Positions 1-22,184 of a DNA stretch of 64,000 nt are shown one piece after another; position 1 is the first letter of the stretch, and each line of letters opens with the position of its first letter. This stretch comes from Methylacidiphilum caldifontis (GTDB lineage Bacteria; Verrucomicrobiota; Verrucomicrobiia; Methylacidiphilales; CAMAQI01): the NCBI GenBank assembly GCA_945877805.1, contig CAMCSM010000003.1, forward strand, positions 1,295-65,294, given 5' to 3'. The position numbers and the translations under genes were made by a program. The notes under the pieces were generated by a model. The model was given only the letters and a program-made list of their open reading frames with translations, did not search any database and was not told the origin of the DNA.

Positions 1-40
1 GTCTGATACGAGCAGTGTTTAAGTAATAATAAGAGGTCTT

Positions 41-436
41 ATGAATTCGAAATTGTATGTAGGGAACCTTCCGTTCTCTGCTGATGAATCCCAAATTGAA
101 TCCGCATTTGCCGAGTTTGGCGCGGTTTCTCAAGTTCAAATCGTCCGTGATCGTGAAACGCAACGCCCTCGTGGCTTTGCCTTTGTTACCATGGGAACAG
201 CCGAAGAGGCCCAAGCAGCTATCAGTGGCTTGCACGGGAAAGACTTAGGCGGTCGTTCTATCACCGTAAATGAAGCTCGTCCTAAGGAAGATCGCCCACA
301 GCGCTCTTTTGATGGACCTCGTGGTGGTGGCGGCGGTGGTGGTTATGGCGGTGGCGAACGTCGTGGCGGCGGTGGTGGTTATGGCGGCGGCGAACGTCGT
401 GGCGGTGGTGGTGGTGGACATCGCGACCGTTACTAA
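41..436 (+). CDS. RRM-type RNA-binding protein with Gly/Arg-rich C-terminal tail
   Basis: RNP motifs (LYVGNL, RGFAFVTM) in the N-terminal ~80 aa. C-terminal GGGYGGGERR repeats. Confidence 0.9.
   Translation: MNSKLYVGNLPFSADESQIESAFAEFGAVSQVQIVRDRETQRPRGFAFVTMGTAEEAQAAISGLHGKDLGGRSITVNEARPKEDRPQRSFDGPRGGGGGGGYGGGERRGGGGGYGGGERRGGGGGGHRDRY
329..400 (+). repeat. 36-nt tandem duplication (2 units) encoding GGGGGYGGGERR
   Basis: Units 329-364 and 365-400 differ only at position 352 (t) versus 388 (c). Confidence 0.9.
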
Positions 437-475
437 AAAGACCTCTTTCGTCTGATCATTTTTAAAATCCTTTAC

Positions 476-504
476 CCCCCCATGAATCTTGAATTCATGG
501 GGGG
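476..504. terminator. Intrinsic-terminator-like hairpin between convergent genes
   Basis: 12-bp perfect stem ccccccatgaat / attcatgggggg with loop cttga. T-rich tract follows on the + strand. Confidence 0.7.
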
Positions 505-514
505 CTATTTGATT

Positions 515-898
515 TTAGAATAAATCCTTCCCGTATTTATTCACCCACTTCTTTTCTCGCTCCATTTGCTCCACCGCTTTTTTAGCCATCATCGGCTCAA
601 TCCAATGTCGCTCCCACTGTAAAAATCCAATAGTGATCATTGATCCTACCGTCAAAAGCCATGTGACCCCCGCCAGTAAAGCGGCAAATAAACGGTCTTT
701 AAATAGAAGATATCCCCAGGAGGTGGGATAACCGACCATCCGCTCGATCACTCCTTCAGGTGAACGTTGAAAACAGACTTGATCCCCTAAAAAAACAAGA
801 AAGCCGACGATCAATAGGATCAGAAGAAGAAAAAGTTTCTGCGGATCAGAAAGCCCTCCCAAGGAGGGATTGGGGATTTGGGGATTGGGGAGTTTCAT
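515..898 (-). CDS. Small integral membrane protein, possible membrane anchor partner of the upstream ATPase
   Basis: Two hydrophobic helices (LFLLLILLIVGFLVFLG, FAALLAGVTWLLTVGSMITIGFL). 4-nt overlap with the upstream gene. Confidence 0.5.
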   Translation of the reverse strand: MKLPNPQIPNPSLGGLSDPQKLFLLLILLIVGFLVFLGDQVCFQRSPEGVIERMVGYPTSWGYLLFKDRLFAALLAGVTWLLTVGSMITIGFLQWERHWIEPMMAKKAVEQMEREKKWVNKYGKDLF

Positions 899-2814
899 AA
901 ATGAATCGGATTAAAATCAAAACGAACCTGACGAACCATTAAATCTCCAAATCGAGCCGGTAACCGTAAAACTCCTTCCCCAATACGAAAAGTAACGAAT
1001 TGATCGGATGAAAAACGAGCGGCCTTCTCGTAGCTCGTCGAATACCCTCTCGATCCCCATTTCTTCTTTGAATCAATCCAATGCTCCATCGCCCCTTGGT
1101 TTTGATTTAACCGCACTTTAATCTCTGACCCTAAAGCTCGTGAGGCATAGTCGTTTGTCTTTGGATCGTCGTTTCTTAAAAAAATCTTCATCCCACAGTT
1201 TTGCATGAGCGCATCGACCTCCTGTTCTGAAAACTTTCGCAATAAACTCGGAAGTCCTTGCATCGCTAGAATACAGCTACAACGATACTCTCGCACCTTA
1301 TCTAAAAATGAGGCCTCCCCTGTCTGATCTCCAGTGGTCGCGACAGAACCGAACTCGTCACATAAATAGATGAGATTTCTTTCCTGATTCACCAGCCGGT
1401 TCTCTGGTAAAATCTTTAATCGAGATCGATTTAAGGTCGTCCTAAAAAAATCAATCTTCATTACTAAAGAGGCGAGCCGTTGCGCCACGCCATATTGAGA
1501 CGAAGGCATCTCTAAAACGACAAGGAGTCCTCGATCGATGACCTGAGTAAAATCAAAGGTTCCCTGAGGGGCAAACATCCGATCAAAAGGAGCGGTCACA
1601 AACGGCATTAAGGCATTTGAAACCACCATCGATACGGAGGCCGAGGTTTTCTCATTCGCGGGATTCAAATACTCATTTGTGAAATAGCAATAAATCCAAT
1701 CCGACTCCAAACTCTCGCCTCTCTCCCTGAGTAACGATTCATATTGAGACAACAACTCCCCAAGAGCCCCTTGTTTCTTTTTTTCTGAAAATAATTTTGC
1801 GAGCCCTCTCCAAATATCTTGAATCTCCTCTCCTTGCGCGAGAAGGGTTGATCTTTTCTCTCTTAAATTTTTACTCACTTCCCGAGGAAGAATCGCCAAT
1901 AGTCGATTCCACTCCCCTCTTGTCCCCTCAAGAGCGTTTAAGATCTCTTTTCCCCGATCGTTATCAAAACCGAGAGATCCCTCTCTCTGCATCTCACGTA
2001 TGTTTTCAGAAATTTTCCTGAGCTGTTCTCGAAAATGAATTTCTAATGAGTTCTTGAAATCAATACCCTCCCACTCCTCTTCAATTTCCATTAAACTTTT
2101 TCGTACAGACTTGAACAGTTCTCGAATCATTCGACAAGAGTCCTGCCGTTCTCGCTCTCCGGACTCTTCCTGCGGTTTATCGAGACATAAGAGATTTAAA
2201 TAGTGAAAAGAGATCGCAGGAACGGCGGCTCCAGACTTTAAAAGTCGATCGTGAAGAAGAAATAGATTCGTTAATAGTTTTTGAGAGGCCTGAGCCCAAA
2301 ACGGATCGCCCTCCTCTTTCCCGCCACTTGCCGCCTTGATGAGCTCATGAATCTTATTCGCTTTTTGGAGGGGTAACTCCGTCGGATCAGAAAAGGGATC
2401 GTAGACCCACTGGGGGTGATCCGGCCCGAAATAGACAATCGACTCTTCACGTTGATAGCGACGAGCAAGAACCTTTGTTTTTGGGGTAAAATCGCCCTTT
2501 GCCTCAATCACCAATCCTCCCACCTGATATTGATGACGCATCGAACCTTCAGAATGATAAGCAGATCGAAAGACAACTCCTTCATAAACTTGATGAAGAA
2601 CCGTGGATGTTTTCCCAGAGCCTGATCCCCCGGTAATTAACAAATGATCGTTAAAATCTTTCCAACAAAGATCAACAGAGTCCTCAGATGCTCCCCCATG
2701 GTCATCTTGGAATCGAAATCTAAACTTCCCCATCTCCTTTTGATAGGAGGAGGAGATTTCCTTTTCATCAACAGGAAGGTCGGGTGGACTGCTGAAAAAT
2801 GACCAAGGCTTCAT
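895..2814 (-). CDS. Type IV secretion coupling protein-like P-loop ATPase (TraD/TraG/VirD4 family), lacking N-terminal TM helices
   Basis: Walker A ITGGSGSGKTST and Walker B-like LIYLCDEFGS. C-terminal ILAMQGLPSL...IFLRNDDPKTNDYASRALGS resembles the TraG-D_C signature. Long coiled-coil insert. Confidence 0.65.
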   Translation of the reverse strand: MKPWSFFSSPPDLPVDEKEISSSYQKEMGKFRFRFQDDHGGASEDSVDLCWKDFNDHLLITGGSGSGKTSTVLHQVYEGVVFRSAYHSEGSMRHQYQVGGLVIEAKGDFTPKTKVLARRYQREESIVYFGPDHPQWVYDPFSDPTELPLQKANKIHELIKAASGGKEEGDPFWAQASQKLLTNLFLLHDRLLKSGAAVPAISFHYLNLLCLDKPQEESGERERQDSCRMIRELFKSVRKSLMEIEEEWEGIDFKNSLEIHFREQLRKISENIREMQREGSLGFDNDRGKEILNALEGTRGEWNRLLAILPREVSKNLREKRSTLLAQGEEIQDIWRGLAKLFSEKKKQGALGELLSQYESLLRERGESLESDWIYCYFTNEYLNPANEKTSASVSMVVSNALMPFVTAPFDRMFAPQGTFDFTQVIDRGLLVVLEMPSSQYGVAQRLASLVMKIDFFRTTLNRSRLKILPENRLVNQERNLIYLCDEFGSVATTGDQTGEASFLDKVREYRCSCILAMQGLPSLLRKFSEQEVDALMQNCGMKIFLRNDDPKTNDYASRALGSEIKVRLNQNQGAMEHWIDSKKKWGSRGYSTSYEKAARFSSDQFVTFRIGEGVLRLPARFGDLMVRQVRFDFNPIHL

Positions 2815-2847
2815 CCTTCCCTCAGTGGGAGAGGAAGGGGGGGGGCG

Positions 2848-3693
2848 TCAAGGCTCTAAAAAAATTCGCTCGATCTCTAAAAATTGGCGGTCCACTTCTT
2901 CACAAAGCTTGGAAAGAGTCTCTAATTCAAGTCCTAAGATCGACCACGCCTTCTCCTCAAAAGGAGGGGGGATATCCTCCCCAGAACTCCCGATCTCCAT
3001 CGCATGCACCAATAAGTTAGCGACATGAATCGCAGAGAGTTCAAAAGAACCGGATTTTATTTTTTTGAAATCATGATGGCCCCTCACCACATCAATCAGC
3101 GGTTGAGGCATTTTCCATTCACTTAAAATGAGCGCCCCGACCTCAGTATGATCATACCCTAATTGCCGATGCTCAACCTCATTCATCGGAGCCCCAGAAG
3201 TCGAAATCTCCTTTAAAATCGATTCAAACTGATCCGGAAGATTCATCGCAATCGGTAATTTTCCAATATCATGAACTAATCCCATGATAAAAAATTGTTC
3301 GATATTTTGTTGATTGGTAAACTGCGCAATCAGTCGAGAGGTAATCCCACAGGCAATATTATGCCGCCAAAAATGATCCAAAAAAATCGGGTCGATCTTA
3401 TTTTTTCGAAAAACCTGGATGAGCACTGTTCCAAAGCAAAGATCGCGAACCTGCTTTAATCCGATCAGTCGAACCGATTCGCTCAAACTACTCACCTGTT
3501 GAGGAAAGCCGTAAAAACTACTATTGGCTAAACGAAGCAATCGAACCGTCAAACTCGGATCCTCTCCGATAATTTCCACGATCGATTCCATATTCGCATC
3601 AGGATCATTCACCACCCTCTGAATATGATGGTAGACCATCGAGAGCGAAGGGAGTTTCGCTGAATTTTTTAAAAGTCCTTCAAGATCTTTCAT
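2848..3693 (-). CDS. HDOD domain signalling protein
   Basis: LPSLSMVYHHIQRVVNDP...EDPSLTVRLLRLANSSFYG and LVHDIGKL motifs typical of HDOD. Confidence 0.8.
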   Translation of the reverse strand: MKDLEGLLKNSAKLPSLSMVYHHIQRVVNDPDANMESIVEIIGEDPSLTVRLLRLANSSFYGFPQQVSSLSESVRLIGLKQVRDLCFGTVLIQVFRKNKIDPIFLDHFWRHNIACGITSRLIAQFTNQQNIEQFFIMGLVHDIGKLPIAMNLPDQFESILKEISTSGAPMNEVEHRQLGYDHTEVGALILSEWKMPQPLIDVVRGHHDFKKIKSGSFELSAIHVANLLVHAMEIGSSGEDIPPPFEEKAWSILGLELETLSKLCEEVDRQFLEIERIFLEP

Positions 3694-3699
3694 CGTCGT

Positions 3700-4038
3700 T
3701 TAACTTTTTGAAGTTTTGCCGTGAACGTGACGTTCCACGCAGATCTCAAATAACTGTTTAATGACTTCTGATTTTAGATCTAAATTTCTAAAACGTTTTT
3801 TTATCTGATCCACCTGTTTCAGATCGATTGAAACCGCGGGACTCTCTTTTCGATCCCCCTCTTCAGAAATTCGAACTTGATTCACTCCAAATGACTTTAA
3901 AACCTGAATGAGTCGCACATCTAAAAGCTGATCTTTCTTCGCTAAAACGATTTCTTTAGAGGATTTAACCTCCTCCCCGAGCCGTGAGCCAGGGGGTAAG
4001 TCATCAATTTTAATAAACTTTAAACGCATTACCATCAA
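3700..4038 (-). CDS. Small protein resembling the N-terminal DUF3391-type module of HD-GYP regulators
   Basis: KFIKIDDLPPGSRLGEEV...LIQVLKSFGVNQVRI pattern. 6-nt gap to the HDOD gene. Confidence 0.35.
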   Translation of the reverse strand: MMVMRLKFIKIDDLPPGSRLGEEVKSSKEIVLAKKDQLLDVRLIQVLKSFGVNQVRISEEGDRKESPAVSIDLKQVDQIKKRFRNLDLKSEVIKQLFEICVERHVHGKTSKS

Positions 4039-4044
4039 TTAGAT

Positions 4045-4083
4045 ACCTAAAATTTTATTTAAAAAAAGTTAAAAATGAACTTT
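4045..4083. promoter_or_regulatory. Perfect 16-bp inverted repeat (candidate operator) in a divergent promoter region
   Basis: ttatttaaaaaaagtt (4045-4060), 7-nt spacer aaaaatg, aactttttttaaataa (4068-4083). Lies between the start codons at 4038 (-) and 4150 (+). Confidence 0.5.
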
Positions 4084-4149
4084 TTTTAAATAAAAACTCA
4101 TTCTCCGCAATTATGTTGTTCATTAGTCAAAAAGTGATTAACTTTTTCC

Positions 4150-5460
4150 ATGGCATTTAATCCACTCGACAACGCCACCCTCTTCATCCCTCTGGAGCCC
4201 AATACTTCAGAAAAACTTGATATCAAGACCCCCATGATCGAGGGATTGATTATGAGACTTCTTTACACGCGATCGGTCCTTCAAGGCCATGAAATTGCCA
4301 CAATCGTAGCGCTCCCATTTTTTGGGATCCTTGAGCCGATCATTGAAGAGTTAAAAGAACAGAAGATGATCGAAGTCGTCAAAGGAGAAAGAAGTTCAAT
4401 CACTTACAGTTACGGAATTACCGAATTTGGAAGACAGCGAGCCGTTCAATATTTCGAACAAACGACCTATATCGGTCCCGCCCCGATCTCTCTTGAATCG
4501 TACCGACATGCGATTAAGGAACAAAGCATCCATCGAATCAGCATCAATGCAGAGAAACTCGAGGAGGTATTTGAGGGACTTATTTTTGACGGCGATATCT
4601 TACAACAGGTAGGTCCGGCGGTAAACTCGGGACGATCTATTTTCCTCTATGGCCCCCCAGGAAACGGAAAAACCTCGATCTGTGAGCGAATCGTGGCCTC
4701 ACTCGGTGGCGCAATTTTTATTCCCTATGCCATTGAGGCCCAAGGCCAGATCATTAAACTTTACGACGAATATAACCATCAAGCGTTAAATGCCTCTGAA
4801 GATATTCGGCTCCAAGCAAAATATGATCCTCGCTATAAACTGATTCGACGACCGATGATCATCGTCGGCGGCGAACTCACGTTAGAAACCCTCGATCTCA
4901 TTTGGAATCCGGACTCCCGCTATTATGAAGCCCCCCTTCAATTAAAGTCCAATGGGGGCGCCTTTATGATCGACGATTTTGGACGGCAACGAATCGAACC
5001 GAAAGTTCTTCTCAATCGATGGATCGTTCCCCTCGAAAAAAGAATCGATTATCTCACGACTCATACAGGGACAAAAATTGATGTTCCCTTTGATGAGCTG
5101 ATTGTCTTCTCCACCAATTTAAATCCCAATGATTTAGTTGATGAAGCCTTTCTCAGACGTATTCGCTATAAGATTGGAATCCATAATCCCTCCCCTGAAA
5201 ACTTCATTAAAATATGGGAATTGGTCAGTATCGCAAAAAAAGTCCCTTTCGATCACTCCGTTCCCCAATATTTTATTCAAAAACATATGACGGCTAAAAA
5301 TCGCCCCCTTCGTGGATGTATTCCACGTGATATTATCGATTATATTATCGATGTCTGTCGCTTTAAGCAGGTAGACCCGACGATGAGCGCAGAACTCCTC
5401 GATGAAGCGGCTGAAGCCTATTTTGTGACCTTTAAAAGCAACGATTACGTGATGCCATAA
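4150..5460 (+). CDS. AAA+ ATPase with N-terminal winged-helix-like region
   Basis: Walker A LYGPPGNGKTS, Walker B FMIDDFG, NRWIVPLEKRIDYL and LVDEAFLRRI motifs. Confidence 0.7.
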   Translation: MAFNPLDNATLFIPLEPNTSEKLDIKTPMIEGLIMRLLYTRSVLQGHEIATIVALPFFGILEPIIEELKEQKMIEVVKGERSSITYSYGITEFGRQRAVQYFEQTTYIGPAPISLESYRHAIKEQSIHRISINAEKLEEVFEGLIFDGDILQQVGPAVNSGRSIFLYGPPGNGKTSICERIVASLGGAIFIPYAIEAQGQIIKLYDEYNHQALNASEDIRLQAKYDPRYKLIRRPMIIVGGELTLETLDLIWNPDSRYYEAPLQLKSNGGAFMIDDFGRQRIEPKVLLNRWIVPLEKRIDYLTTHTGTKIDVPFDELIVFSTNLNPNDLVDEAFLRRIRYKIGIHNPSPENFIKIWELVSIAKKVPFDHSVPQYFIQKHMTAKNRPLRGCIPRDIIDYIIDVCRFKQVDPTMSAELLDEAAEAYFVTFKSNDYVMP

Positions 5461-5513
5461 TAAGCGAAATCTGTCTTGGCTGCCTGCTCCGAAAAATTTC
5501 GGAGGAGCCAAGG

Positions 5514-5720
5514 CCGTCCCGCATATGCGCATGAGGGTCAACTTAAGGACAACAACCAAATACAATTTTCACCGCGGGGTAAACAGAGGGTAACGGAGGA
5601 AAATTCGGTTCTTTTTTTCAAAACAAGCTCAATAAAATAAATCCCAATTTCTCGTTTCCTTATAAAACAGTATTCCCTCCGTTGTCCTCCGTTTACCCCG
5701 CGGTGAAAATTGTATTTTGG
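5514..5720. repeat. Composite intergenic repeat: family C core plus a MITE-like unit with ~28-nt terminal inverted repeats
   Basis: The core ccgtcccgcatatgcgcatgagggtcaacttaagg (5514-5548) recurs at 63611-63643 in reverse complement. Arms 5556-5584 and 5691-5720 are near-perfect inverted repeats around a ~105-nt spacer. Confidence 0.8.
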
Positions 5721-5735
5721 TTAAACCGCTCCCTT

Positions 5736-6449
5736 TTATTCTCCTAGGTAGGCTCTCCTTACCTCATCACTTTCGAGAAGATTTCTTCCTGTATCAGAAT
5801 GAACAATCTTCCCCGTGACCATCACATATCCCCGATGGGCGATCTTTAATGCCTGACGTGCATTTTGCTCGACCAATAAAATCGGAACCCCCGTTTGATT
5901 GATTTTTAAAAGGATCTCAAAAATCTTTTCGACGATCAATGGAGCTAACCCTAAAGAGGGCTCATCGAGCATTAACAACTTTGGCTCACTCATTAACGAA
6001 CGTCCAATGGCAAGCATCTGCTGCTCCCCGCCACTCAACGTTCCTCCGAGTTGCCTCTTCCGCTCCGCTAATTTCGGAAAGTAATCAAAAACCTGTTCCA
6101 ACTTCTCTCCGTTTCGTCGTGAGTCGAGGAGATAGGCACCAATTCTTAAATTCTCTTCAACGGTCATCAACGGAAAGATATGCCGAGCCTCGGGACATAA
6201 GACGATCCCTTGAGCCAAGAGTCGATCAGGACTCTCCCCCACCAAAATCCCCCCTTGCCAATAAATCGATCCCTTCTGATGGCGAATCACCGACATAATT
6301 GAGGCGAGTGTTGTTGTTTTACCCGCTCCGTTTCCTCCCAAAAGCGTGACAATTTCACCCGCATGGACCACCAAGTTGACCCCTTTTAAAACCTCCGCCG
6401 CCCCATAGCCGACATGAAGATCTTTTAACTCAAGCAAAGGAGAGTTCAT
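5736..6449 (-). CDS. livF: Branched-chain amino acid ABC transporter ATP-binding protein
   Basis: GGNGAGKTT Walker A, LSGGEQQML signature, LivF-like length and C-terminus. Confidence 0.85.
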   Translation of the reverse strand: MNSPLLELKDLHVGYGAAEVLKGVNLVVHAGEIVTLLGGNGAGKTTTLASIMSVIRHQKGSIYWQGGILVGESPDRLLAQGIVLCPEARHIFPLMTVEENLRIGAYLLDSRRNGEKLEQVFDYFPKLAERKRQLGGTLSGGEQQMLAIGRSLMSEPKLLMLDEPSLGLAPLIVEKIFEILLKINQTGVPILLVEQNARQALKIAHRGYVMVTGKIVHSDTGRNLLESDEVRRAYLGE

Positions 6450-7231
6450 GAGCCCCCTCCTTTTTCCTCTGCTCCTCCTAAATAGGCTTCAATCACCTGA
6501 GGATGTTTACGAATTTCCTCCGGAGTTCCTACCGCCAACTCCTCGCCATGATCTAAAACTAAAATTCGATCTGAAATATCCATGACCACTTTCATATGAT
6601 GCTCAATTAAAATCACCGTAACTCCAATCGTTCTCATCTTTGAAATCAAATCGATCATCCCTCCAATCTCACTTGGATTCATCCCCGCTCCTGGCTCATC
6701 CAATAAAATAACCTGAGGGTCGGTAGCCAAGGCCCGAGCAATCTCTAAACGTCTCTGATTTCCATAAGACAAATGCCCTGCCTTCATTCGAAGATCCCCT
6801 TCAATTCCGACAAACGAGAGCCATTTCATTGCCCGTTCTTTTGCTAAATGCTGAAACGTTTGGTGCGCTGTCGTTCGAAACAATATCCCCCAACTAGAGG
6901 TGCGATGATGATTGCTATCGGCGACTAAAACATTGTCCAAAAGACTTAAATGATCAAAGAGTCGTATATTCTGAAAAGTTCGCGCCATTCCCAAGCGACA
7001 GATTTGATAGGGCTTTTTTCCGACAATCGATTTTCCCCCTAAAAGAATCGCCCCTTCATCAGGCTGATAAAAACCGGATAAACAATTAAAGAGGGTCGTC
7101 TTTCCGGCTCCATTCGGACCGATCACACTTAAAATTTCCCCTTTAAAAAGTTGAAAGCAGATATTGTCGATTGCCCGCAGCCCCCCAAAGCCTTTCCCAA
7201 CATTTTGAACATCTAAAACGAGTGGCTTCAT
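6446..7231 (-). CDS. livG: Branched-chain amino acid ABC transporter ATP-binding protein
   Basis: GPNGAGKTTLFN, LSYGNQRRLEIARAL, LLDEPGAGMNP. Confidence 0.85.
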   Translation of the reverse strand: MKPLVLDVQNVGKGFGGLRAIDNICFQLFKGEILSVIGPNGAGKTTLFNCLSGFYQPDEGAILLGGKSIVGKKPYQICRLGMARTFQNIRLFDHLSLLDNVLVADSNHHRTSSWGILFRTTAHQTFQHLAKERAMKWLSFVGIEGDLRMKAGHLSYGNQRRLEIARALATDPQVILLDEPGAGMNPSEIGGMIDLISKMRTIGVTVILIEHHMKVVMDISDRILVLDHGEELAVGTPEEIRKHPQVIEAYLGGAEEKGGGS

Positions 7232-8427
7232 ACCCGATCCTTTGATCCTAAGAGCCCTTGGGGCCGTACCAACATCATCACCACCATAATCATTCCAAAA
7301 AGAAGTAATCGATACTCAGCAATCGCCGGAATATAATCGCGTAAAACCGTCGGAATATAATACAGCAAAAAACTTCCCAATAAAGCTCCCGGAATACTTC
7401 CTAATCCACCTAAAATGACCATGGCAAGAATCAAAACCGAAATCTCAAAAGCACTTGATTCAGGATTCAAAAAACCGGTGTGAACCGTATAAAGAACTCC
7501 CGCGAGAGCCGCAAATGCCGCACTTAATGAAAAGGCAATGAGTTTCATTTTAACAACAGGAACCCCCGTCGCCTCCGCTGCGATTTCATTTTCTCGTATC
7601 GCCGTCCAGGCCCTTCCAAAAGGGGAATAATAGAGCCGATGTAAAACCATCACTGTAAAAAAAAGCGCAATCAGCACCCAAAGATAGACGCTCGAAATCA
7701 CTCCTAACCCCAACATCTTTCCCACTTTGGATGAAGAATGAATACTGATCCCAATATCCCCTCCCGTAATCGAGGGCAAATTCCGAACCAACTCACGAAA
7801 AGATTCCGCAAATCCCAAAGTCACGATCGCTAAATAATCCCCCCGTAACCTCAAACAAGGAAGTCCCACAAGCCATCCCACCATTGCCCCGATACCACAG
7901 GCCACGGGAATCGCCATCCACCAAGTAAACCCAGGGATGAATTGCTGCAAAATTGCAAAAACATAACCCCCCAAAGAAAAGAATCCGGCATATCCCAAAA
8001 CCAAAAGCCCTGTCATTCCAATCGTCACGTTAAGCCCCAAGGCCAAAATCATATAAATGCCGACCATGATAAAGACATTTAATACTTTTGGCCCCGCAAT
8101 CCATGAAACCGTCGCTAAACAAAAGAAGAGAGAAATTGCATAAAAATTATTTTTTCGAATCATCCGATAGAAATGATTGATCGATACTAATTTTCGTTGG
8201 GTAAAAGAGTTGCGTTTAAAAAAATAAATTAAAAAATAAACAACCACTCCCCCTGCGAGAAGGGGAAATAAACCGCGAAAAAAAGAAAGGCCGCGATCCC
8301 ACTGGGGAAATGCCTTGAGCACCCCTGAAAGGGGCTCATAGGAAAGCTTTAACCAAATAAAAGGATAGGTCATCACGATCACGAGAAGGACCAAAAGGAG
8401 TGTTGAAAAAAATGCGCGATTCTTCAT
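7228..8427 (-). CDS. livM: Branched-chain amino acid ABC transporter permease
   Basis: Polytopic membrane protein with LivM-type core (GYAGFFSLGGYVFA...). Translationally coupled within the liv operon. Confidence 0.8.
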   Translation of the reverse strand: MKNRAFFSTLLLVLLVIVMTYPFIWLKLSYEPLSGVLKAFPQWDRGLSFFRGLFPLLAGGVVVYFLIYFFKRNSFTQRKLVSINHFYRMIRKNNFYAISLFFCLATVSWIAGPKVLNVFIMVGIYMILALGLNVTIGMTGLLVLGYAGFFSLGGYVFAILQQFIPGFTWWMAIPVACGIGAMVGWLVGLPCLRLRGDYLAIVTLGFAESFRELVRNLPSITGGDIGISIHSSSKVGKMLGLGVISSVYLWVLIALFFTVMVLHRLYYSPFGRAWTAIRENEIAAEATGVPVVKMKLIAFSLSAAFAALAGVLYTVHTGFLNPESSAFEISVLILAMVILGGLGSIPGALLGSFLLYYIPTVLRDYIPAIAEYRLLLFGMIMVVMMLVRPQGLLGSKDRV

Positions 8428-9332
8428 ACCTTATGAGCGATCCTCTCCCCCAATAATCCTCTCGGTCTCACCAAAAGCACTAACATCAAAATCATAAAGG
8501 TCGTGAGATTCTTCCAATCACTTCCAATCCCATAACTGGTTAAATCCTCAGTCAACCCCAAGATCAGCCCCCCTAAAACAGCTCCTGGGATATTTCCAAT
8601 TCCCCCGAGAACCGCAGCGGTAAAGGCCTTAAGTCCCATCAAATATCCAGAATCAAATCGAGCAACCCCTTGATACATCGAAACCATCACCCCTGCAACG
8701 GCGGCTAAAGCCGATCCTAAAACAAAGGTGGTCGTAATCGTCTTATTCACAGAGACCCCCACCAGTTGCGCCATCGTACGATCTTGAGCTACCGCTCTCA
8801 TCGCTAACCCTAATGAAGTCCGATGGATCACCCAAAATAACCCTGCCATCACCACGAGCGATGTTCCTAAGATCAAAAGTTGCAAATAGGAAATAGAAAG
8901 CCCCGCACAAACCTGCCATTGGTTCTCTGAAAAAAACCGACTCTGTGCCTGAGGAAAATCAATTTTATCCTTCGTCACACTCAGCATAATAAAATTTTGA
9001 AGAACAATCGATAATCCGATCGCACTGGTTAACGGAGCCATAATGTGGGCCCCCCGAAGTCGCCGGTAAGCAATCCGCTCATTCGAATAACCAAAAGCCG
9101 AGGCGATCAAGATCGAAATGACCACCCCGAGACAAAGCGCCATACTGATTGATCCCGGCAAGAGAGTACTCGCAATTCCAATCCCAAAAACAGTGGCGAA
9201 CATTCCAATCATAAAAACCTCGCCATGAGCAAAGTTAATCATTCCCAAAATTCCATAAACCATCGTGTAGCCTAAGGCGACTAAGGCGTAACAAGCTCCA
9301 CGAACGAGACCGTTGAGAATAATTTCTAACAT
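8424..9332 (-). CDS. livH: Branched-chain amino acid ABC transporter permease
   Basis: GLVRGACYALVALGYTMVYGILGMINFAHGE N-terminus typical of LivH. Confidence 0.85.
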   Translation of the reverse strand: MLEIILNGLVRGACYALVALGYTMVYGILGMINFAHGEVFMIGMFATVFGIGIASTLLPGSISMALCLGVVISILIASAFGYSNERIAYRRLRGAHIMAPLTSAIGLSIVLQNFIMLSVTKDKIDFPQAQSRFFSENQWQVCAGLSISYLQLLILGTSLVVMAGLFWVIHRTSLGLAMRAVAQDRTMAQLVGVSVNKTITTTFVLGSALAAVAGVMVSMYQGVARFDSGYLMGLKAFTAAVLGGIGNIPGAVLGGLILGLTEDLTSYGIGSDWKNLTTFMILMLVLLVRPRGLLGERIAHKV

Positions 9333-9390
9333 AAAATAGTTGACCGCAATTTAGTGAATCCAGTGAGAGTTAAAAGAAAAAATAACGAAC

Positions 9391-9548
9391 GCAGGTTCCT
9401 TCCTGTTTCCAGTGGAATCAAGAACTCTCTTAGGAAAGCAAGAAAGCAGGAATTTCGAAATAAAAAAACAAGAATGTATATTTCCTTTTTTCCTGTCTTC
9501 ATTAGAGAGTTCTCATTAAATTCCACTGAAAGTGGGAAGGAACCCAAA
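9391..9548. repeat. Palindromic intergenic element related to repeat family A
   Basis: Arms gcaggttccttcctgtttccagtggaatcaagaactctct and agagagttctcattaaattccactgaaagtgggaaggaacc. Core ctcttaggaaagcaagaaagcaggaattt matches copy A3. Confidence 0.6.
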
Positions 9549-9557
9549 CGCAGAACC

Positions 9558-10400
9558 TTAACGACTACTATGAAAGATATAATCCATCAGCTCTCTCAGA
9601 TGATCCACGTATCGGCTCATCCATAGATCCCCGCCCATCATCCAAACAATCGCGGCAATCGCAATAAAGGGGCCGTAAGGCATTCGCAATCCCATCGCTC
9701 TTCTTTTTTGAATAATGATCGAAATCCCAATAATCGATCCAAAGACAGAGGATAAACCGAGAACGAAACCGGCTCCCCAAGGGCCGAAAAAAGCCCCAAT
9801 CGCAGCCAGTAACTTCACATCCCCTAATCCCATCGCCTCGCGCCTAAAGACCCAAGTTCCAATTTTTGCGATCAAAAATAAAATAGCCCCTCCAACAAAG
9901 GCCCCTCTCATACTCTCGATAAAACCGTTCCAGCTATTGGATTCGCCGTGAAGTTGTGGGTAAATAAAACTGATCACAAGACCGGCAACACACCCCCCTA
10001 AAGTAAAACGATCAGGAATGATAAAGTAGTCTAAATCGATACAACTGGCGATAATCAACCCAGAGGTGATGAAAGCGTAAATGCAAAAGATCGGAGTCGC
10101 TCCCTGTTGTTGCCAAATCCACCAAAATAAAAAGGCGGTCGTTGCCTCCACCATCCAATAACGAGCATCAATCCGAGTTCCACAACAATGGGCCCGGCCT
10201 TTTAAAAAAAACCAGCCTAAGATCGGAATATTAAACCTCCATGGAATCGCTGAGCCGCAAGAGCCACAATAGGAGGACTTTGAAACAAGATCGACCTCTA
10301 TAGGAATGCGGTAAATACAAACATTTAAAAAGGAGCCGATACAGGCGCCAAATAGAGCAATAAATACCTGAAACAATGGCAGATGAAAATCCATAATCAA
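9558..10400 (-). CDS. pilD: Prepilin peptidase / N-methyltransferase (A24 family)
   Basis: N-terminal Cys cluster CGSCGSAI...CCGTRI. Conserved GLGDVKL aspartyl motif. 7-8 TM helices. Confidence 0.85.
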   Translation of the reverse strand: MIMDFHLPLFQVFIALFGACIGSFLNVCIYRIPIEVDLVSKSSYCGSCGSAIPWRFNIPILGWFFLKGRAHCCGTRIDARYWMVEATTAFLFWWIWQQQGATPIFCIYAFITSGLIIASCIDLDYFIIPDRFTLGGCVAGLVISFIYPQLHGESNSWNGFIESMRGAFVGGAILFLIAKIGTWVFRREAMGLGDVKLLAAIGAFFGPWGAGFVLGLSSVFGSIIGISIIIQKRRAMGLRMPYGPFIAIAAIVWMMGGDLWMSRYVDHLRELMDYIFHSSR

Positions 10401-10404
10401 CTAG

Positions 10405-10592
10405 GAGCAACTGTCCCTATCTAATGGGGAATGGCATAGGGGTAAGCGGATTTTTAAAACATTCAATAGGGAACTCAGGAAAAAAGGAAAAAATAATCCT
10501 GATTTCCTGCTTTCCCCATTAAAATTGTATTTTTCGTAACTATTTGATTGCAAAGTGTTTATATGTTTTAGAAAGTTTACTTCACTAAGAGA
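10405..10592. repeat. Repeat family A, copy A1 (~188 nt, hairpin-forming)
   Basis: Aligns over its full length with 42197-42384 and 45706-45897. Internal inverted repeat ggggtaagcgga...tcctgctttcccc. Confidence 0.85.
10524..10553 (-). promoter_or_regulatory. Sigma70-like promoter candidate carried inside repeat A1
   Basis: Minus strand reads TTGCAA, 18 nt, TACAAT. It points toward the pilD start at 10400. Confidence 0.3.
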
Positions 10593-10603
10593 CCTGCAAT
10601 CCC

Positions 10604-10936
10604 TCAGGCAGATCCAATCGCCAGCCAGGCGACCTCAACCGACCACATTCGAGTATTCAGCCATGTTCTCATTTGGAGTGAAAAACCCTCAGCGGTAATA
10701 TGAGCTGCATTTAAGCTCAACCGTGCATTCCGAGAGTTATCGATATCAAAACCGATGAGGGAAAGTTGGACGATCGGCTTGTCGGAAAATTTCTGATCAA
10801 ACCGAATATAACGCTCGAAAATCCGATCATGATTTTCTGAGGGAACATCGACTAATACCCAATCAGGCTCCTCGACACTTCCTACAATGGTTCCATTTAA
10901 AAATAAAGGCACTTTGCTCTTATCAGACATACTCAC
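10604..10936 (-). CDS. H-type lectin domain protein, no signal peptide
   Basis: FDQKFSDKPIVQLSLIGFDID...ITAEGFSLQMRTWLNTRMWSVEVAWLAIG resembles the H-type lectin fold signature. Confidence 0.5.
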   Translation of the reverse strand: MSMSDKSKVPLFLNGTIVGSVEEPDWVLVDVPSENHDRIFERYIRFDQKFSDKPIVQLSLIGFDIDNSRNARLSLNAAHITAEGFSLQMRTWLNTRMWSVEVAWLAIGSA

Positions 10937-10986
10937 ATCCCCTTTTTATTTAAGTTACCTCAATCAAAAAAATGGTCAAGAAACAA

Positions 10987-11020
10987 CAAAAAAACCCCGA
11001 ATAATTTCGGGGTTTTTTTT
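10987..11020. terminator. Bidirectional intrinsic terminator
   Basis: aaaaaaaa-ccccgaa-taat-ttcgggg-tttttttt. A-run and T-run flank a 7-bp GC-rich stem. Confidence 0.8.
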
Positions 11021-11034
11021 GAGTAAAATTCTTC

Positions 11035-11388
11035 CTAAACAGTCTTTGGAGTTTGACCCGATCCGTCAGACATCGGCATCTGAATACTTCCATTTAAGAT
11101 ACCGCCTTGAGAAACGATGAATCGTGGAGATTTAATATTTCCGTTCACGACCCCCGTCGGTGCAACATCGACTTTATCGCTTGATTCGATCGAACCAGAA
11201 ACTTTTCCTGAAACTTGCACATTCTTTGCAGAAACTTCAGCTTTGACCTCTCCTCCTTGAGAGACAGTCAAATTCTCTTTAATCTTGATCGTTCCTTCGA
11301 CATAACCATCAACAACGATATTCTCGTCGCCAATAACGTCCCCTTTGATTTTAATGGTCTTCCCGATGTAGGTAGGTGTAAGTGACAT
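11035..11388 (-). CDS. Bactofilin (polymer-forming cytoskeletal protein)
   Basis: Repetitive beta-helix pattern IKGDVIGDENIVVDGYVEGTIKIKENLTV...VSGKVSGSI...VNGNI. Confidence 0.8.
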   Translation of the reverse strand: MSLTPTYIGKTIKIKGDVIGDENIVVDGYVEGTIKIKENLTVSQGGEVKAEVSAKNVQVSGKVSGSIESSDKVDVAPTGVVNGNIKSPRFIVSQGGILNGSIQMPMSDGSGQTPKTV

Positions 11389-11471
11389 AGTGTTCTATTT
11401 TTAGCCTCTGTTATGACAATCGTCAACGGCAAAAGCAATTTATCCCTCAATCTTGAAATTCCTCGTAGAAT

Positions 11472-11583
11472 AAAATTGTATTTTTAAAATTTATAAATCG
11501 GAATCCAATGCGATTGATATCGGGGAGAGACTATTTTCATTGAGGAGATATCCTCGGTTTCGGTCTTTGACCGATTTATGTTT
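11472..11583 (-). repeat. Repeat family B, copy B1 (~110 nt, MITE-like)
   Basis: The reverse complement aligns with 27491-27600 and 35476-35575. Terminal inverted repeat cataaatcgg...ccgatttat. Confidence 0.85.
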
Positions 11584-13141
11584 ATTCAAAACTTTTATCT
11601 TTTTTTACTCCGAGCTGGACTGAGCGTTTATAGTGGTACTGACATTTCTCTCCCTCTCCCTCACCAAGCGCTTTTAATGTTTTTGCTAAGGCACGATGCA
11701 GATCTCCAGAATTGGGGTTTTTCGTGAGCCCCTCCTCAAGTGATTTCTTTGATTCCACGTGCCACCCACGATCATATAAAATAATCCCCAAACCGAGATA
11801 GCTCTCTGCAATTTCCGGAGATAAAGCAATGGAAACGATCGCATCATCAATCGCTTCTTCACTCCTTCCCCCTTGACTCTTCACAATAGCGAGGGTCCCG
11901 TAACTGTACCCATCATAGGGAGCGAGCTCGATTGCTTTCTCCAAATGATTAATTGAGTCTTCAAAATTGCCACAAAGATACTCAACACTTCCTAAATTTG
12001 AGAGCAGATAAAGGGAGCTTGAATCTTTCTCATAGAGCGCTTTGTAAATCGAGCGTGCCTCTTGATAGCGGGCAGAATTAAAGGCACTTGAGGCCTTTTT
12101 ACAGGAAATGAGTTCGGCTTTAGGGATCATCGGAATGAGAGAGGGGGAGGGATTGGAATGAGATTGTATCAAATCAATGACCGATTTCCTCAGTTGCTCC
12201 ACACGATGATAAATTAATCGATTCTCATTTTCTAACGATTCTTTGGCAAATTGAAACTCCCCTTCTGACTTATACCTTTGATCGCTCTCTAAAGGTCTCC
12301 AAATCTTCTCCCCCATTACTTTTTCAAATGCATCCGCAGGGACTCCTTGAGGATTCCGTGCAATTTTAACCGCTCTTTCAAGCCCCTCTTGGAGCCGACT
12401 CAAGACACGATATTGAATCTGTTCAAAATCAAACCCTTGAATCCATGAGCTCTCAAAAGGAGCTCTCGGCTTTTCCTCAGCCACCACTTCTTGAACCTCC
12501 ACGGGGGAGGGGGAATTCTCTCCAGATTTATCCACCTTGAGTTCTGGCCCTTTAGCGCTCTCTGAAGGGGTAATCGACAAATCAGGCGGAATCGTTATCG
12601 GCGTTTGAACCTCCCTCTCTTTCCGCTCTCCAAGGAGGTTAACCGTTTCATTTCGCTCTTTTTTAGGACTCACAAAAAGCTCCTTAAAACCCGAAAACTC
12701 CAGAAGAACAATCTCCCCATGAGGAAGCGCCCGGCCATTAACAATAGTCTCCCCTAAATGTCCTGTAATCCCAAAAGTCTTTTTTTGATAGGAATCAAAA
12801 ATAATCGTAAATAAGGAACCTGCGGGCATCTGGATAAAATAACGATCGATAATAAAGTTCAACTCTCTTTTCTGCGCATCATCATTACGAATAAAAATTG
12901 CATGGTCGCCGTGGATATTAAAACCGAAACTTAACAAAAAGGAATAATCAGAGTGATCGACTCGAAGTTTATAAGTCGATCGAGGAACCGTATTTCGAAC
13001 CTCCTGTTCTGGGGAGAAAAAAACAAGATTCCGTTCTCTCAGCAAAATTGTGAAGGCCTCCACAGGACGAGCTAACTCTTCGGATATCACTCCCGTTAAA
13101 AGAAAACTAAGGACAACTAAAATAGAAAGCAAACATTTCAC
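11582..13141 (-). CDS. Secreted TPR-repeat protein
   Basis: N-terminal signal peptide. C-terminal ~170 aa form TPR-like repeats (YKALYEKDSS..., LEKAIELAPYDGYSYGTLAIV...). Confidence 0.6.
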   Translation of the reverse strand: MKCLLSILVVLSFLLTGVISEELARPVEAFTILLRERNLVFFSPEQEVRNTVPRSTYKLRVDHSDYSFLLSFGFNIHGDHAIFIRNDDAQKRELNFIIDRYFIQMPAGSLFTIIFDSYQKKTFGITGHLGETIVNGRALPHGEIVLLEFSGFKELFVSPKKERNETVNLLGERKEREVQTPITIPPDLSITPSESAKGPELKVDKSGENSPSPVEVQEVVAEEKPRAPFESSWIQGFDFEQIQYRVLSRLQEGLERAVKIARNPQGVPADAFEKVMGEKIWRPLESDQRYKSEGEFQFAKESLENENRLIYHRVEQLRKSVIDLIQSHSNPSPSLIPMIPKAELISCKKASSAFNSARYQEARSIYKALYEKDSSSLYLLSNLGSVEYLCGNFEDSINHLEKAIELAPYDGYSYGTLAIVKSQGGRSEEAIDDAIVSIALSPEIAESYLGLGIILYDRGWHVESKKSLEEGLTKNPNSGDLHRALAKTLKALGEGEGEKCQYHYKRSVQLGVKKDKSFE

Positions 13142-15145: not shown

Positions 15146-16465
15146 TTAGTTTCCAGACAAGAGACGCTCTTGAAAGCGAGTCAAAAGATGGATGATGACA
15201 TTAACCGAGACCTGAAAGACCTCTTCAGATCCCTCAACACTTAAATTCCTAAAATAAGTTTCTCGGGCATTCCACATTGCTGCTGGAGTAATATATTCAA
15301 TCTCTTTCCCATTAATCTTTCCCTCATGTAACTCCACTTCATTTTTGGTCGGCCTCACAGGCTCTTTATAGGCCACTCTCATCATATCGGTGTAATCGTT
15401 AGGGGTATAAAGAACGGCGATCTCATTATCAATCTTGAGCACCTCAAAAGAATCTTGCCGATAGTTCATTCCATCCGGAATCCCCTTTAATTGAAAAAAG
15501 GATTTTTCTCCGCCAAAAATCGGATGGGTGATGGGAATAACCTCAAACTGTTTGTCGGCATCGGGAATCACTCGCTTCATCTCACGACGGAAGGCGATAT
15601 CAAAACGGGAACCTACCCCTGCTAATCCACTATCTCCCCAAATACAGCCACCAGCCATTAAATAGTTCCGAATATTCTCAACTTCCGAGGCCGTAAGCTT
15701 AAAATCTTTAGCCCCCGTCATATAAACAAAGGGAGGAGCCTTCTCTAAAAGTGTCGGGCTCGACATATCGATAGGACGTGAGTCGACTTTGGATTTAATC
15801 TTTCCTTGACTCCAGCTGTTAATCATCCGAGTTAAGTTCTTGAGCGGTCCTCGTTCATTTCCTTTATCATCAAATAAAATACCTCGAGCATTCAACCCCT
15901 CTAACTTGGCAACTTTAAGAACAAATTCCGCTTGAACATTACGTCCCGTCCCCGATGGTCCGCCGCCTCCAGATCCTCCTCCTCCACTTCCCCATTGCGA
16001 TACCGTCCCTCGAATCGCAGCACTGCGCGCCCCAAAAGACTTCGCCATCGCTGCGTCATTATTTTTTGCTAACTCCTGCGTCACATTTTTAATAGCACTT
16101 GTATCAATCGTCTGAGAAATCTGCGTCGATACAGGAACGGTAAAAGAGCTTGCGTCCGAAGAGTTAACCGACAAAAGCTCCTTAGATGCCTCACTCGTGC
16201 TCGAAGGAACTTGCTCCTGTGCTTGAGCGGGAGCAGTAGTCGATTCTGGAGTCGACTCGGATTGGCTTGGGGGGGCGGCAGGCCCAGGATCTCCTCCTCC
16301 AACGATATAGGAGGCACTTTCGAACTCTTTCGTTGGAAAAACAGCATCAAAAATAACGATTCCCCCGATCAGGAGAAATAAAATGAGATGAAAAATGATC
16401 GATCCGATAAAATACGGCGATCTCTTAAATCTCTCCTTCCAGGTCTCTTCTCGTGGGGCGTGCAT
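15146..16465 (-). CDS. Membrane-anchored protein: N-terminal TM, Pro/Ser/Thr/Ala-rich linker and DUF4159-like C-terminal domain
   Basis: TM helix YFIGSIIFHLILFLLIGGIVIF. Linker GDPGPAAPPSQSESTPESTTAPAQAQEQ. PFVYMTGAKDFKLTASEVENIRNYLMAGGCIWGDSG...THPIF matches the DUF4159 pattern as I recall it. Confidence 0.5.
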   Translation of the reverse strand: MHAPREETWKERFKRSPYFIGSIIFHLILFLLIGGIVIFDAVFPTKEFESASYIVGGGDPGPAAPPSQSESTPESTTAPAQAQEQVPSSTSEASKELLSVNSSDASSFTVPVSTQISQTIDTSAIKNVTQELAKNNDAAMAKSFGARSAAIRGTVSQWGSGGGGSGGGGPSGTGRNVQAEFVLKVAKLEGLNARGILFDDKGNERGPLKNLTRMINSWSQGKIKSKVDSRPIDMSSPTLLEKAPPFVYMTGAKDFKLTASEVENIRNYLMAGGCIWGDSGLAGVGSRFDIAFRREMKRVIPDADKQFEVIPITHPIFGGEKSFFQLKGIPDGMNYRQDSFEVLKIDNEIAVLYTPNDYTDMMRVAYKEPVRPTKNEVELHEGKINGKEIEYITPAAMWNARETYFRNLSVEGSEEVFQVSVNVIIHLLTRFQERLLSGN

Positions 16466-16473
16466 TCGGTTCC

Positions 16474-16908
16474 TTACAATGAAGACGTTCCAAAAGCCAA
16501 ATTCTTAACGCCGGCAGCACTGCAGGCATTTAAAACATCGACAATTCGCTCATGTCGTGAGGCGGGAGAAGGGGCAATGATCACCGGTTGCTTCTCCCCA
16601 AATTTTGCAATCAATCCCTTGAGCTCCGCTTTCAAACCGTTCATCTCTTTACTATTCGGGGTATCCATCGGAGTCTGATTTAAAAAAACTTGTCCCTGCG
16701 TATTAATATCCAACTGCGCCGGTGGATTCAGTTCCTCAGTAGGAGATGCGTCTTTTTTTCCTCCAGGAATCTTAATCCCCAGCTCCGCCTCTTTGATCTG
16801 CGCCCCAGCGCTGGACATAAAAAAGATCAAAAGCACGAAAAGCAGATCCAAGATCGGTGCGATCTGGAGTCCGAATTCACCTTCATCTCCGCCTCCTCCT
16901 CCGCCCAT
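16474..16908 (-). CDS. exbD: ExbD/TolR family biopolymer transport protein
   Basis: ILDLLFVLLIFFM TM helix plus a periplasmic ExbD-type domain. Confidence 0.8.
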   Translation of the reverse strand: MGGGGGGDEGEFGLQIAPILDLLFVLLIFFMSSAGAQIKEAELGIKIPGGKKDASPTEELNPPAQLDINTQGQVFLNQTPMDTPNSKEMNGLKAELKGLIAKFGEKQPVIIAPSPASRHERIVDVLNACSAAGVKNLAFGTSSL

Positions 16909-16911
16909 AAT

Positions 16912-17367
16912 TTATCCTTTTTTATTCGCTTCGTTGGTTACCACTGAAAAGGTAATACTTGAAATCTGCGCCTCAGCACAGGCCTTCATCACTTGAGAGA
17001 CATAACTATACTGCGCCTCTTTATCGGCGCGGACTAAAACTCGCATTCCTGGATCGGAATCCGATTTCGTCTTCAAAAAAGCGACCGCTTCTTGAGGAGT
17101 ATTATATTGCTTTTGATCGATTTCAATCTCCCCCTTATTGGTGATTGGATCCCAACTTAAGTTCACCACAACTTGAACAACGTTCTTTGCTTTGTCTTTT
17201 CCATCTTTAGCGACAGGCAGTTCTAATCCTTTGACATTTCGAAGAATCTCGGAGGTCGTAATGCTCATGAAGAAAATCAATAAGACCAACAAGACATCGG
17301 CCATCGGTGCCACCTGAAATTCAGGATCAGCCTCTGGCTCTGCATGTTTAATCTTTCGACGTCCCAT
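16912..17367 (-). CDS. exbD: ExbD/TolR family biopolymer transport protein (second paralog)
   Basis: MADVLLVLLIFFM TM helix. LVRADKEAQYSYVSQVMKACAEA typical of ExbD. Confidence 0.8.
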   Translation of the reverse strand: MGRRKIKHAEPEADPEFQVAPMADVLLVLLIFFMSITTSEILRNVKGLELPVAKDGKDKAKNVVQVVVNLSWDPITNKGEIEIDQKQYNTPQEAVAFLKTKSDSDPGMRVLVRADKEAQYSYVSQVMKACAEAQISSITFSVVTNEANKKG

Positions 17368-17394
17368 AAATATTCTCGACGCTCGTTAAAGCAA

Positions 17395-22132: not shown

Positions 22133-22184
22133 CGGTTTCTTCCTTTTTAAAGTCATTCTCCGTTTTTTCCAATAAAGACCACGC

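Follow-up and report, generated by a model that had tools for sequence, protein, structure and literature searches.

The sequence examined here, a 64,000-nt stretch of a Methylacidiphilum caldifontis contig (GenBank CAMCSM010000003.1, positions 1,295 to 65,294; hereafter the window), carries near its left end four closely spaced minus-strand open reading frames (ORFs) between positions 515 and 4038. They encode a small protein of 109-112 aa, a protein with an HDOD domain, a soluble ATPase from the superfamily of type IV coupling proteins (T4CPs) and a 127-aa membrane protein (Table 1). The stop codon of the ATPase gene and the start codon of the 127-aa gene share an ATGA, read directly in the sequence, which gives a 4-nt overlap; the HDOD gene is separated from the ATPase gene by 33 nt, and the first gene from the HDOD gene by 6 nt. 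An earlier interpretation of this DNA (the sequence-only reading) had described four packed genes with this spacing, a TraD/VirD4-like ATPase that lacks a transmembrane (TM) segment and carries an unusually long charged helical insert, a separate two-TM protein translationally coupled downstream, and a window without conjugation genes. We reproduced the coordinates and the spacing, and the remaining elements of this description hold in the analyses below. Conservation of the four genes as a cassette does not: across related loci the constant unit is the ATPase together with its membrane partner, and not the HDOD operon.

By profile and by fold, the 639-aa ATPase is a member of the TraG/VirD4/TrwB (T4CP) superfamily. 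Three Pfam models of coupling proteins match above their gathering cut-offs, namely TrwB_AAD_bind (PF10412; E = 4.8e-14, 52.5 bits, cut-off 20.5), T4SS-DNA_transf (PF02534; 4.7e-12, 45.9 bits, cut-off 20.1) and TraG-D_C (PF12696; 3.7e-11, 43.5 bits, cut-off 22). An AlphaFold2 (AF2) model, built from a 28-sequence family alignment (A4), reached a mean predicted local distance difference test score (pLDDT) of 85.6, and a Foldseek search with this model against the PDB returned Cagbeta, the coupling protein of H. pylori, and TrwB at ranks 1-38 (Cagbeta 8dol, 5.6e-11; TrwB 1e9s, TM-score to target 0.68), with HerA and VirB4 from rank 39 and EccC not significant. In a viral structure library, also searched with Foldseek, a "conjugal transfer" protein and TraG/VirD4 proteins ranked first. 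Membership in the FtsK/HerA group was rejected, given a DUF87/HerA Pfam E-value of 0.53 and the placement of HerA below all T4CP chains in Foldseek. Neither the ATPase nor its relatives reach the cut-off of a named T4CP equivalog (TraD F-type, VirD4, SXT TraD, CD1115): the top NCBIfam match, VirD4-like CD1115, scores 73.4 bits against a cut-off of 250, and all others lie far below theirs, among them TraD_Ftype (27.8 against 521) and VirD4 (18.6 against 681). Over the C-terminal third, identity to plasmid T4CPs is only 23-29%.

Across the 28 aligned sequences, which extend down to 25% identity, Q519 and both Walker motifs vary little or not at all; G65, K68 and E487 are the same in every sequence, and D486 in nearly every one. 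The Walker motifs of the window ATPase are intact, and the protein is predicted to be catalytically competent. No hydrophobic segment in the protein exceeds the detection threshold, and the full-length close family members likewise lack TM segments, apart from six sequences (P0006, P0010, P0012, P0017, P0021 and P0023) with a single segment just above threshold, either internal or N-terminal. In the AF2 model, an all-helical region spanning approximately residues 148-413 sits between the Walker A and Walker B halves of the nucleotide-binding domain (NBD). This all-alpha region is larger than that of TrwB and includes a 156-residue charged extension (the insert in Table 1), in which 40% of the residues are charged and long helices are predicted at residues 220-249, 257-276, 285-308 and 311-343. 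The insert is the fastest-evolving part of the protein, at 27-51% identity compared with 65-86% for the rest, and is much longer in relatives of 709-862 aa.

The membrane partner has two strong hydrophobic segments (residues 22-38 and 70-86) joined by a loop with conserved D39, F43 and R69, and some relatives display a third, weaker segment. Its C-terminal tail is rich in lysine and arginine (EPMMAK..VEQ.EREKKW.NKYGKDLF), with 7-9 such residues in every lineage. A homologue of 119-140 aa lies directly downstream of the ATPase gene in 12 of the 14 family loci, at ATPase identities as low as about 30%, and all of these homologues share the two strong segments, the conserved residues of the loop and the basic tail. 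Compared pair by pair, the identities of the two proteins (ATPase/partner) move in step (69/70, 65/65, 62/56, 64/65, 59/57 and 60/62%). The neighboring GlmS is 90-92% identical in the same genome pairs, and the HDOD protein 74-82% identical; the parallel divergence of ATPase and partner would be indirect support for an interaction between the two proteins. The sequence-only reading had called the ATPase "split", but gene fission is unsupported because the partner lies downstream and its profile does not resemble the N-terminal TM domains found in the closest relatives that have them. The partner has no match above threshold in PHROGs, Pfam or PADLOC; a holin-family match lies below threshold (E = 0.018, 15.5 bits, cut-off 28.4).

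An exhaustive profile search over 1.84 billion cluster representatives yielded 2530 relatives, sharply split into two tiers. The family proper comprises approximately 36 representatives at E <= 1e-57, whose full-length members are TM-less proteins of 636-862 aa in which Walker A falls at residues 49-137 and the insert varies. Its clusters are almost all singletons, and the family is rare in public data; a search of the 28-sequence alignment against a 5.8-billion-protein index added no new matches. All family members with a named organism belong to Verrucomicrobiota, and one cultured carrier has a complete genome, Methylacidiphilum infernorum V4 (ACD83226.1; P0019). A scan of genome collections contributed five loci, and a metagenome scan, which was dominated by the Walker A pattern, four, two of them useful. 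In total, more than 15 independent loci (numbered with the prefix L; proteins with P) were gathered and all of their ORFs clustered. We found no published description of the family, nor any that links HDOD with a coupling protein or Methylacidiphilum with VirD4. The family is thus an undescribed, Verrucomicrobiota-restricted T4CP variant with a dedicated membrane partner.

The outgroup tier consists of weaker matches, mostly of 620-740 aa, with two to four N-terminal TM helices and Walker A near residues 200-236. These T4CP-like proteins (for example, P0037; P0041 and P0160 from Gemmataceae; P0044 from an alphaproteobacterial metagenome-assembled genome [MAG]) are functionally uncharacterised. 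They share the C-terminal NBD with the family (E = 1e-54 to 1e-24 against the family profile) and carry the same Pfam domains, but have their own TM helices and lack both the long insert and, as seen at L020, the small partner. At that locus (1504-5205, plus strand), P0037, which combines four TM helices with an NBD like that of T4CPs, follows a 572-aa protein that contains AAA and AAA_lid_6 twice, another uncharacterised T4CP-like arrangement.

Table 1. Positions of the genes, motifs and other features discussed in the text, in the window and in related loci.
Feature	Sequence	Position	Strand	Basis or remark
Membrane partner, 127 aa	Window	515-898	-	ORF list
T4CP-superfamily ATPase, 639 aa, TM-less, module core	Window	895-2814	-	Pfam, AF2 model, Foldseek
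Walker A GGSGSGKT, residues 62-69	Window	2608-2631	-	Translation
Walker B strand LIYLCDE, residues 481-487	Window	1354-1374	-	Translation
Charged helical insert, residues 215-370	Window	1705-2172	-	AF2 model, composition
HDOD protein, 281 aa, lineage-specific upstream partner	Window	2848-3693	-	Pfam
Protein of unknown family, 109-112 aa	Window	3700-4038 (TTG start; probable ATG at 4029)	-	ORF list, homologues
GC-rich hairpin, 12-bp stem	Window	476-504		Between convergent RRM gene and 127-aa gene
AT-rich divergent intergenic region, 111 nt	Window	4039-4149		Sequence
AAA+ ATPase, 436 aa, divergent neighbor	Window	4150-5460	+	Kept beside operon in three lineages
Type IV pilus/type II secretion-like cluster	Window	19455-31956	+	Pfam scan
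PilT-like T2SSE ATPase	Window	22185-23339	+	
Secretin	Window	25993-27492	+	
PilB-like T2SSE+MshEN ATPase	Window	28483-30207	+	
T2SSF platform protein	Window	30219-31424	+	
Pilin with N-methylation motif	Window	31429-31956	+	
WPDG family	L012	6951-7682	-	ORF clustering
WPDG family	L013	2588-3394	-	ORF clustering
WPDG family	L014	4917-5933	-	ORF clustering
WPDG family	L018	7134-7823	-	ORF clustering
WPDG family	L022	9297-9956	-	ORF clustering
WPDG family	L025	9251-9805	-	ORF clustering
QRLG family	L012	11817-12344	+	ORF clustering
QRLG family	L018	11793-12392	+	ORF clustering
QRLG family	L019	10647-11087	+	ORF clustering
QRLG family	L022	12816-13439	+	ORF clustering

The two genes upstream of the ATPase belong to a subset of lineages. 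The 281-aa protein matches Pfam HDOD (PF08668) at 5.9e-60 over profile positions 1-195 of 196, and HD at 1.1e-07. An HDOD gene preceded by a gene for a 109-118-aa protein is found upstream of the ATPase in the window and in L005, L008, L010 and L023/L024, and the small protein always co-occurs with the HDOD gene. The pair is retained in L023/L024 at 56% ATPase identity but is missing from L007, at 62%, and from all deeper lineages. Placing the ATPase inside an HDOD signalling operon, as had been proposed, therefore describes the window subclade, where the HDOD gene does adjoin the ATPase gene, and is overstated for the family. HDOD proteins such as SadB have been reported as adaptors and regulators (PMC12075610, PMC6543031). 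The HDOD and 109-aa proteins of the module are probably regulatory adaptors acquired in the window lineage.

The first gene probably starts at the internal ATG and would then encode 109 aa, the length of a database protein that matches it at 100% identity; the aligned relatives also begin at that methionine. It had been described as DUF3391-like, an assignment that we could not recover. There is no Pfam match at E <= 1, to PF11871 or any other model, and none of its six homologues has a Pfam domain or an annotation. PHROGs and PADLOC likewise returned nothing, and the only profile match is a weak one in NCBIfam (14 bits, E = 0.019), in which an HD-GYP-type regulator is matched at its C-terminal end. 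The AF2 model (pLDDT 68.7) comprises a small N-terminal beta domain and two helices. Foldseek gave no match to it at E <= 0.001; the matches returned, none of them significant, were to MoeA/gephyrin and RNA polymerase, in small motifs of beta-barrel type.

The context of the module in the window is chromosomal. Among the 46 of 57 ORFs of at least 150 aa that were scanned against Pfam (the remaining 11 are all of 399 aa or less), there is no VirB, relaxase, integrase, replication or other conjugation gene, and housekeeping genes include pheS, panC, murI and nadC. No Pfam family of type IV secretion systems (T4SSs) or relaxases occurs within 6-10 kb of the module in any related locus. In close relatives, the flanks hold a gene for an RNA-recognition motif (RRM) protein, glmS, an ABC transporter and other housekeeping genes. 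The side corresponding to the left of the window is occupied there by the RRM gene and glmS, with no element, and would be the same in the window. This RRM/glmS synteny persists over 56-88% ATPase identity, and the module of the window lineage is, as far as its sequence context tells, chromosomal and vertically inherited.

The epithet "orphan" fits the window and its close relatives cleanly, but not the deep branches uniformly. The M. infernorum V4 homologue (L022) lies at approximately 1.096 Mb of CP000975.1 (region read, 1085632-1107761), in surroundings where Pfam matches are almost lacking and three SUKH immunity-type genes occur. In the genome paper, Minf_1152-1200 is singled out as potentially an integrative plasmid (PMC2474590), and, going by accession number and position, this copy is probably inside it. 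At L018, two Rep3 replication-initiator genes are found 4.5-7 kb away, and a far relative that has no partner (P0029) sits among ERF and PIF1 genes. The SUKH/SMI1_KNR4 immunity-type genes of L022 form three tandem upstream cassettes, each with a gene for a 165-aa protein of unknown family (226 aa in the first), followed by a 599-aa protein whose N-terminus appears HNH-like by eye. Downstream lies the gene for a secreted coiled-coil protein of 626 aa, which has weak similarity to a protein of 615 aa at L018.

Deeper lineages carry other accessory proteins of unknown family, WPDG in six loci and QRLG in four, and the profiles of both have no match in the whole window. In the WPDG proteins (184-338 aa), the N-terminal domain is soluble and conserved (W..PLAE.V....DGF..P.E....WPDG), and most of them also have C-terminal TM helices; their genes are always upstream of, and divergent from, a long-form ATPase, and at L014 the gene overlaps that of a secreted 469-aa protein. 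QRLG proteins are soluble, of 146-207 aa, and are encoded one or two genes downstream of the partner in four deep lineages. WPDG has no Pfam, PHROG, PADLOC or PDB-level annotation, and QRLG and the large neighbors of unknown family returned nothing in PHROGs, Pfam or PADLOC.

Genes for pilus-type or secretion machinery and for DNA enzymes recur near the module, and we regard this association as its most interesting lead. The strongest physical link to a pilus-type machine is at L025, from a Verrucomicrobium sp. MAG, where the ATPase-partner pair (10001-12780, plus strand) diverges from a single tightly packed operon (1-9805, minus strand) that encodes, in order, WPDG, a 209-aa protein, a pilin, a PilT-like ATPase, proteins of 574, 186 and 288 aa, a secretin, a 203-aa protein and a PilB-like ATPase. 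Its PilT-like protein and secretin are homologous to those of the pilus-like cluster in the window (19.5-32 kb), in which several genes for 170-525-aa proteins without Pfam matches are interspersed. The window also has a prepilin peptidase gene 5.5 kb from the module (9558-10400, minus strand). At L015, a prepilin peptidase gene begins 41 nt after the partner gene and is followed by topoisomerase A- and B-like genes; at L018, there is a 4-nt overlap between the WPDG gene and recJ, with a T2SSE ATPase 7.5 kb away; and at L023, a pair of secretin genes is found upstream, about 5-8 kb off. Since neither kind of gene occurs inside 10 kb in about half of the lineages, we treat both associations as leads and not as findings.

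An N-terminal TM domain is typical of T4CPs, but it is not universal. The layout of a TM-less ATPase with a separate membrane protein, which had been contrasted with canonical coupling proteins, has a precedent in the Enterococcus Inc18 plasmid pIP501: its TraJ is a T4CP without a TM domain, and TraI is a small two-TM protein proposed as the anchor (PMC7434980, PMC12857230). Compared by description, both systems encode a TM-less T4CP beside a small two-TM protein. In pIP501, however, the pair belongs to a tra operon of 15 genes that also includes a relaxase and VirB4, and the partner gene is upstream, whereas in the module it is downstream and overlapping; the insert of the window ATPase is also a much larger charged helical region than that of TraJ. 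With VirD4, TrwB, TraD and Cagbeta, the module ATPase shares the NBD fold with its all-alpha insertion, the Walker A and B motifs and the three Pfam T4CP domains, but it lacks their N-terminal TM domain, and no relaxase or VirB genes adjoin it. The closest functional analogy for a DNA motor that is independent of a T4SS is TdtA of Thermus thermophilus, a hexameric, membrane-associated P-loop translocase that works with a pilus-like competence apparatus in "transjugation" (PMC5365140). TdtA is HerA-like (orphan FtsK/HerA family), is paired with NurA and lies on a 14-kb integrative element, whereas the module ATPase is T4CP-like and has other partners.

We tentatively favor the reading that the ATPase and its partner form a two-gene Verrucomicrobiota module in which a membrane-tethered, T4CP-type motor recruits or translocates DNA without a canonical T4SS, and we place it slightly short of an even chance of being correct. 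The small inner-membrane protein would be produced by translational coupling with the soluble ATPase, and its conserved, positively charged cytoplasmic tail would tether the ATPase ring to the membrane, such that the two chains could reproduce the role that the N-terminal TM domain has in TrwB and VirD4 and that TraI is proposed to have for TraJ. The all-alpha domain selects the substrate in T4CPs, and the insert, which occupies this position, may be a specificity or partner-binding element. The most likely activity would be to recruit or translocate DNA, or a nucleoprotein, at the cytoplasmic membrane at the expense of ATP. The module would thus probably serve DNA movement there, and its partner in this may be a secretin machine of the type IV pilus or type II secretion-like kind.

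Several points weigh against this reading. What we observed is the fold and motifs of the ATPase, its want of a TM segment, its conserved pairing and parallel divergence with the partner, and flanks free of conjugation genes; we infer tethering, hexamer formation, a DNA substrate, the pilus link and the regulatory role of HDOD. By profile, the partner is not homologous to the TM domains of T4CPs, and the HDOD association points to signalling rather than transport. Accessory genes differ by clade (HDOD with the 109-aa protein, WPDG, QRLG), a pattern that also fits conflict systems. Pilus or secretion genes are nearby in only about half of the lineages, with none within 10 kb in L001, L012-L014, L019 and L022, and Verrucomicrobiota may carry several such clusters, such that the adjacency may be due to chance.

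A coupling protein is taken as the mark of conjugation or of an effector-translocating T4SS, and genome annotators rely on such proteins to call mobile elements. A vertically inherited clade with its own conserved partner, with accessory genes that differ by lineage and with no relaxase or VirB genes nearby would represent reuse of the T4CP motor outside the T4SS, and a T4CP-type gene alone should not count as evidence of a conjugative element. To our knowledge, mechanisms of horizontal transfer are almost unstudied in Verrucomicrobiota, and the recurring proximity to pilus/secretin genes and DNA enzymes suggests a possible hybrid route of DNA traffic. Module function is testable in the cultivable carrier M. 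infernorum V4. A broader proposal would make the module part of an unrecognised Verrucomicrobiota system for transfer or uptake, most likely of DNA, in which the T4CP-type motor and its anchor are coupled to a pilus/secretin machine instead of a VirB-type T4SS, WPDG and QRLG are dedicated components, and the window holds a chromosomal, HDOD-regulated version; we consider this rather unlikely.

The module could instead derive from a mobile element, as the coupling protein of an unrecognised Verrucomicrobiota-specific element or as a domesticated remnant of one, whose other transfer genes (WPDG, QRLG, the large secreted coiled-coil proteins and the pilus-like genes) are too divergent to detect; the window copy would then serve an element elsewhere or be a leftover. 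The deep branches lend this some weight, through the Pfam-poor, SUKH-bearing surroundings of the M. infernorum copy and its probable location in the putative integrative plasmid, the Rep3 genes of L018, the ERF and PIF1 neighbors of P0029, and the WPDG, QRLG and 615/626-aa proteins common to L018 and L022. The window clade, however, keeps its RRM/glmS synteny over the full range of ATPase identity given above, the scanned part of the 64-kb window holds no integrase, relaxase, VirB4 or replication gene, and WPDG and QRLG are absent from the whole of it. A remnant is further countered by intact ORFs and conserved catalytic residues, which indicate that the copy is not decaying; a pseudogene was rejected on like grounds, as no ORF is disrupted and none of the relatives departs from the motifs. 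On balance, we hold an origin in a mobile element to be unlikely.

We see as decidedly unlikely an anti-phage or anti-plasmid defense of the abortive-infection type, in which the ATPase senses invading DNA or nucleoprotein by way of its insert and switches on the partner, a membrane-damaging effector, even though the ATPase and partner evolve much faster than their neighbors, and the insert fastest, and the compact cassette occurs in differing contexts with clade-specific accessory genes. PIN toxin-antitoxin or SUKH immunity genes are also present within 10 kb in several loci, and the ATPase core matches PADLOC mad8, of the MADS system, at 2.3e-12. That match, however, extends only over the generic P-loop core, and none of the operon proteins matched a further mad model, so that membership in MADS was rejected; the holin match of the partner, which would suit an effector, is not significant; HDOD is no known defense component; and restriction to one phylum with stable synteny in the window clade is unlike patchy, horizontally moving defense islands. 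Another account, which comes close to the sequence-only reading and in which nothing is translocated, makes the ATPase primarily regulatory: the HDOD and 109-aa proteins would sense a signal, for example, a nucleotide second messenger, and the ATPase under their control would remodel or regulate a membrane complex, for instance a pilus. The order of 109-118-aa protein, HDOD, ATPase and partner, which five loci preserve with short gaps at ATPase identities as low as 56%, is consistent with this, as are the reported adaptor functions of HDOD proteins such as SadB and the recurrence of pilus genes nearby. Yet HDOD is absent from L007 and every deeper lineage and hence cannot define the function of the family, the NBD retains the full T4CP translocase architecture, and by Pfam the operon has no GGDEF, EAL, PilZ or REC domain; we judge a purely regulatory role very unlikely.

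The GC-rich hairpin downstream of the four genes is probably a bidirectional terminator that marks the end of the operon. The convergent gene on the far side of it (41-436, plus strand) encodes an RRM-type RNA-binding protein with a glycine-rich C-terminal tail, which is near-identical in all close relatives and convergent with the module in every one. At the other end, the AT-rich region is probably the promoter region for both the four-gene operon and the divergent AAA+ gene; a scan of 4039-4149 for promoters found no consensus promoter, and its matches did not exceed shuffled expectation. The 436-aa AAA+ protein is 90% identical in L005 and 80% in L023, in the same divergent position in both, whereas L008 and L007 lack it there. 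It is far more conserved than the module, as the ATPase is only 56-69% identical over the same comparisons, and its similarity to the anti-phage IetA/IteA ATPases is weak and at the level of the P-loop. It is a neighbor by position that may or may not be a module component. By eye, its N-terminal region is winged-helix-like.

Two further gene groups lie elsewhere in the window. ExbB/ExbD-like and Bat/DUF4159-type genes are found at 15146-18195 (minus strand) and again at L019 (1-2174, minus strand), about 6-14 kb from the module, a recurrence that may be loose synteny or coincidence. At 43936-45680 (minus strand), an MbnB/TglH/ChrH-type enzyme for the modification of ribosomally synthesized and post-translationally modified peptides (3.2e-108) adjoins a DUF2063 protein, a pair typical of peptide natural-product or copper-related clusters.

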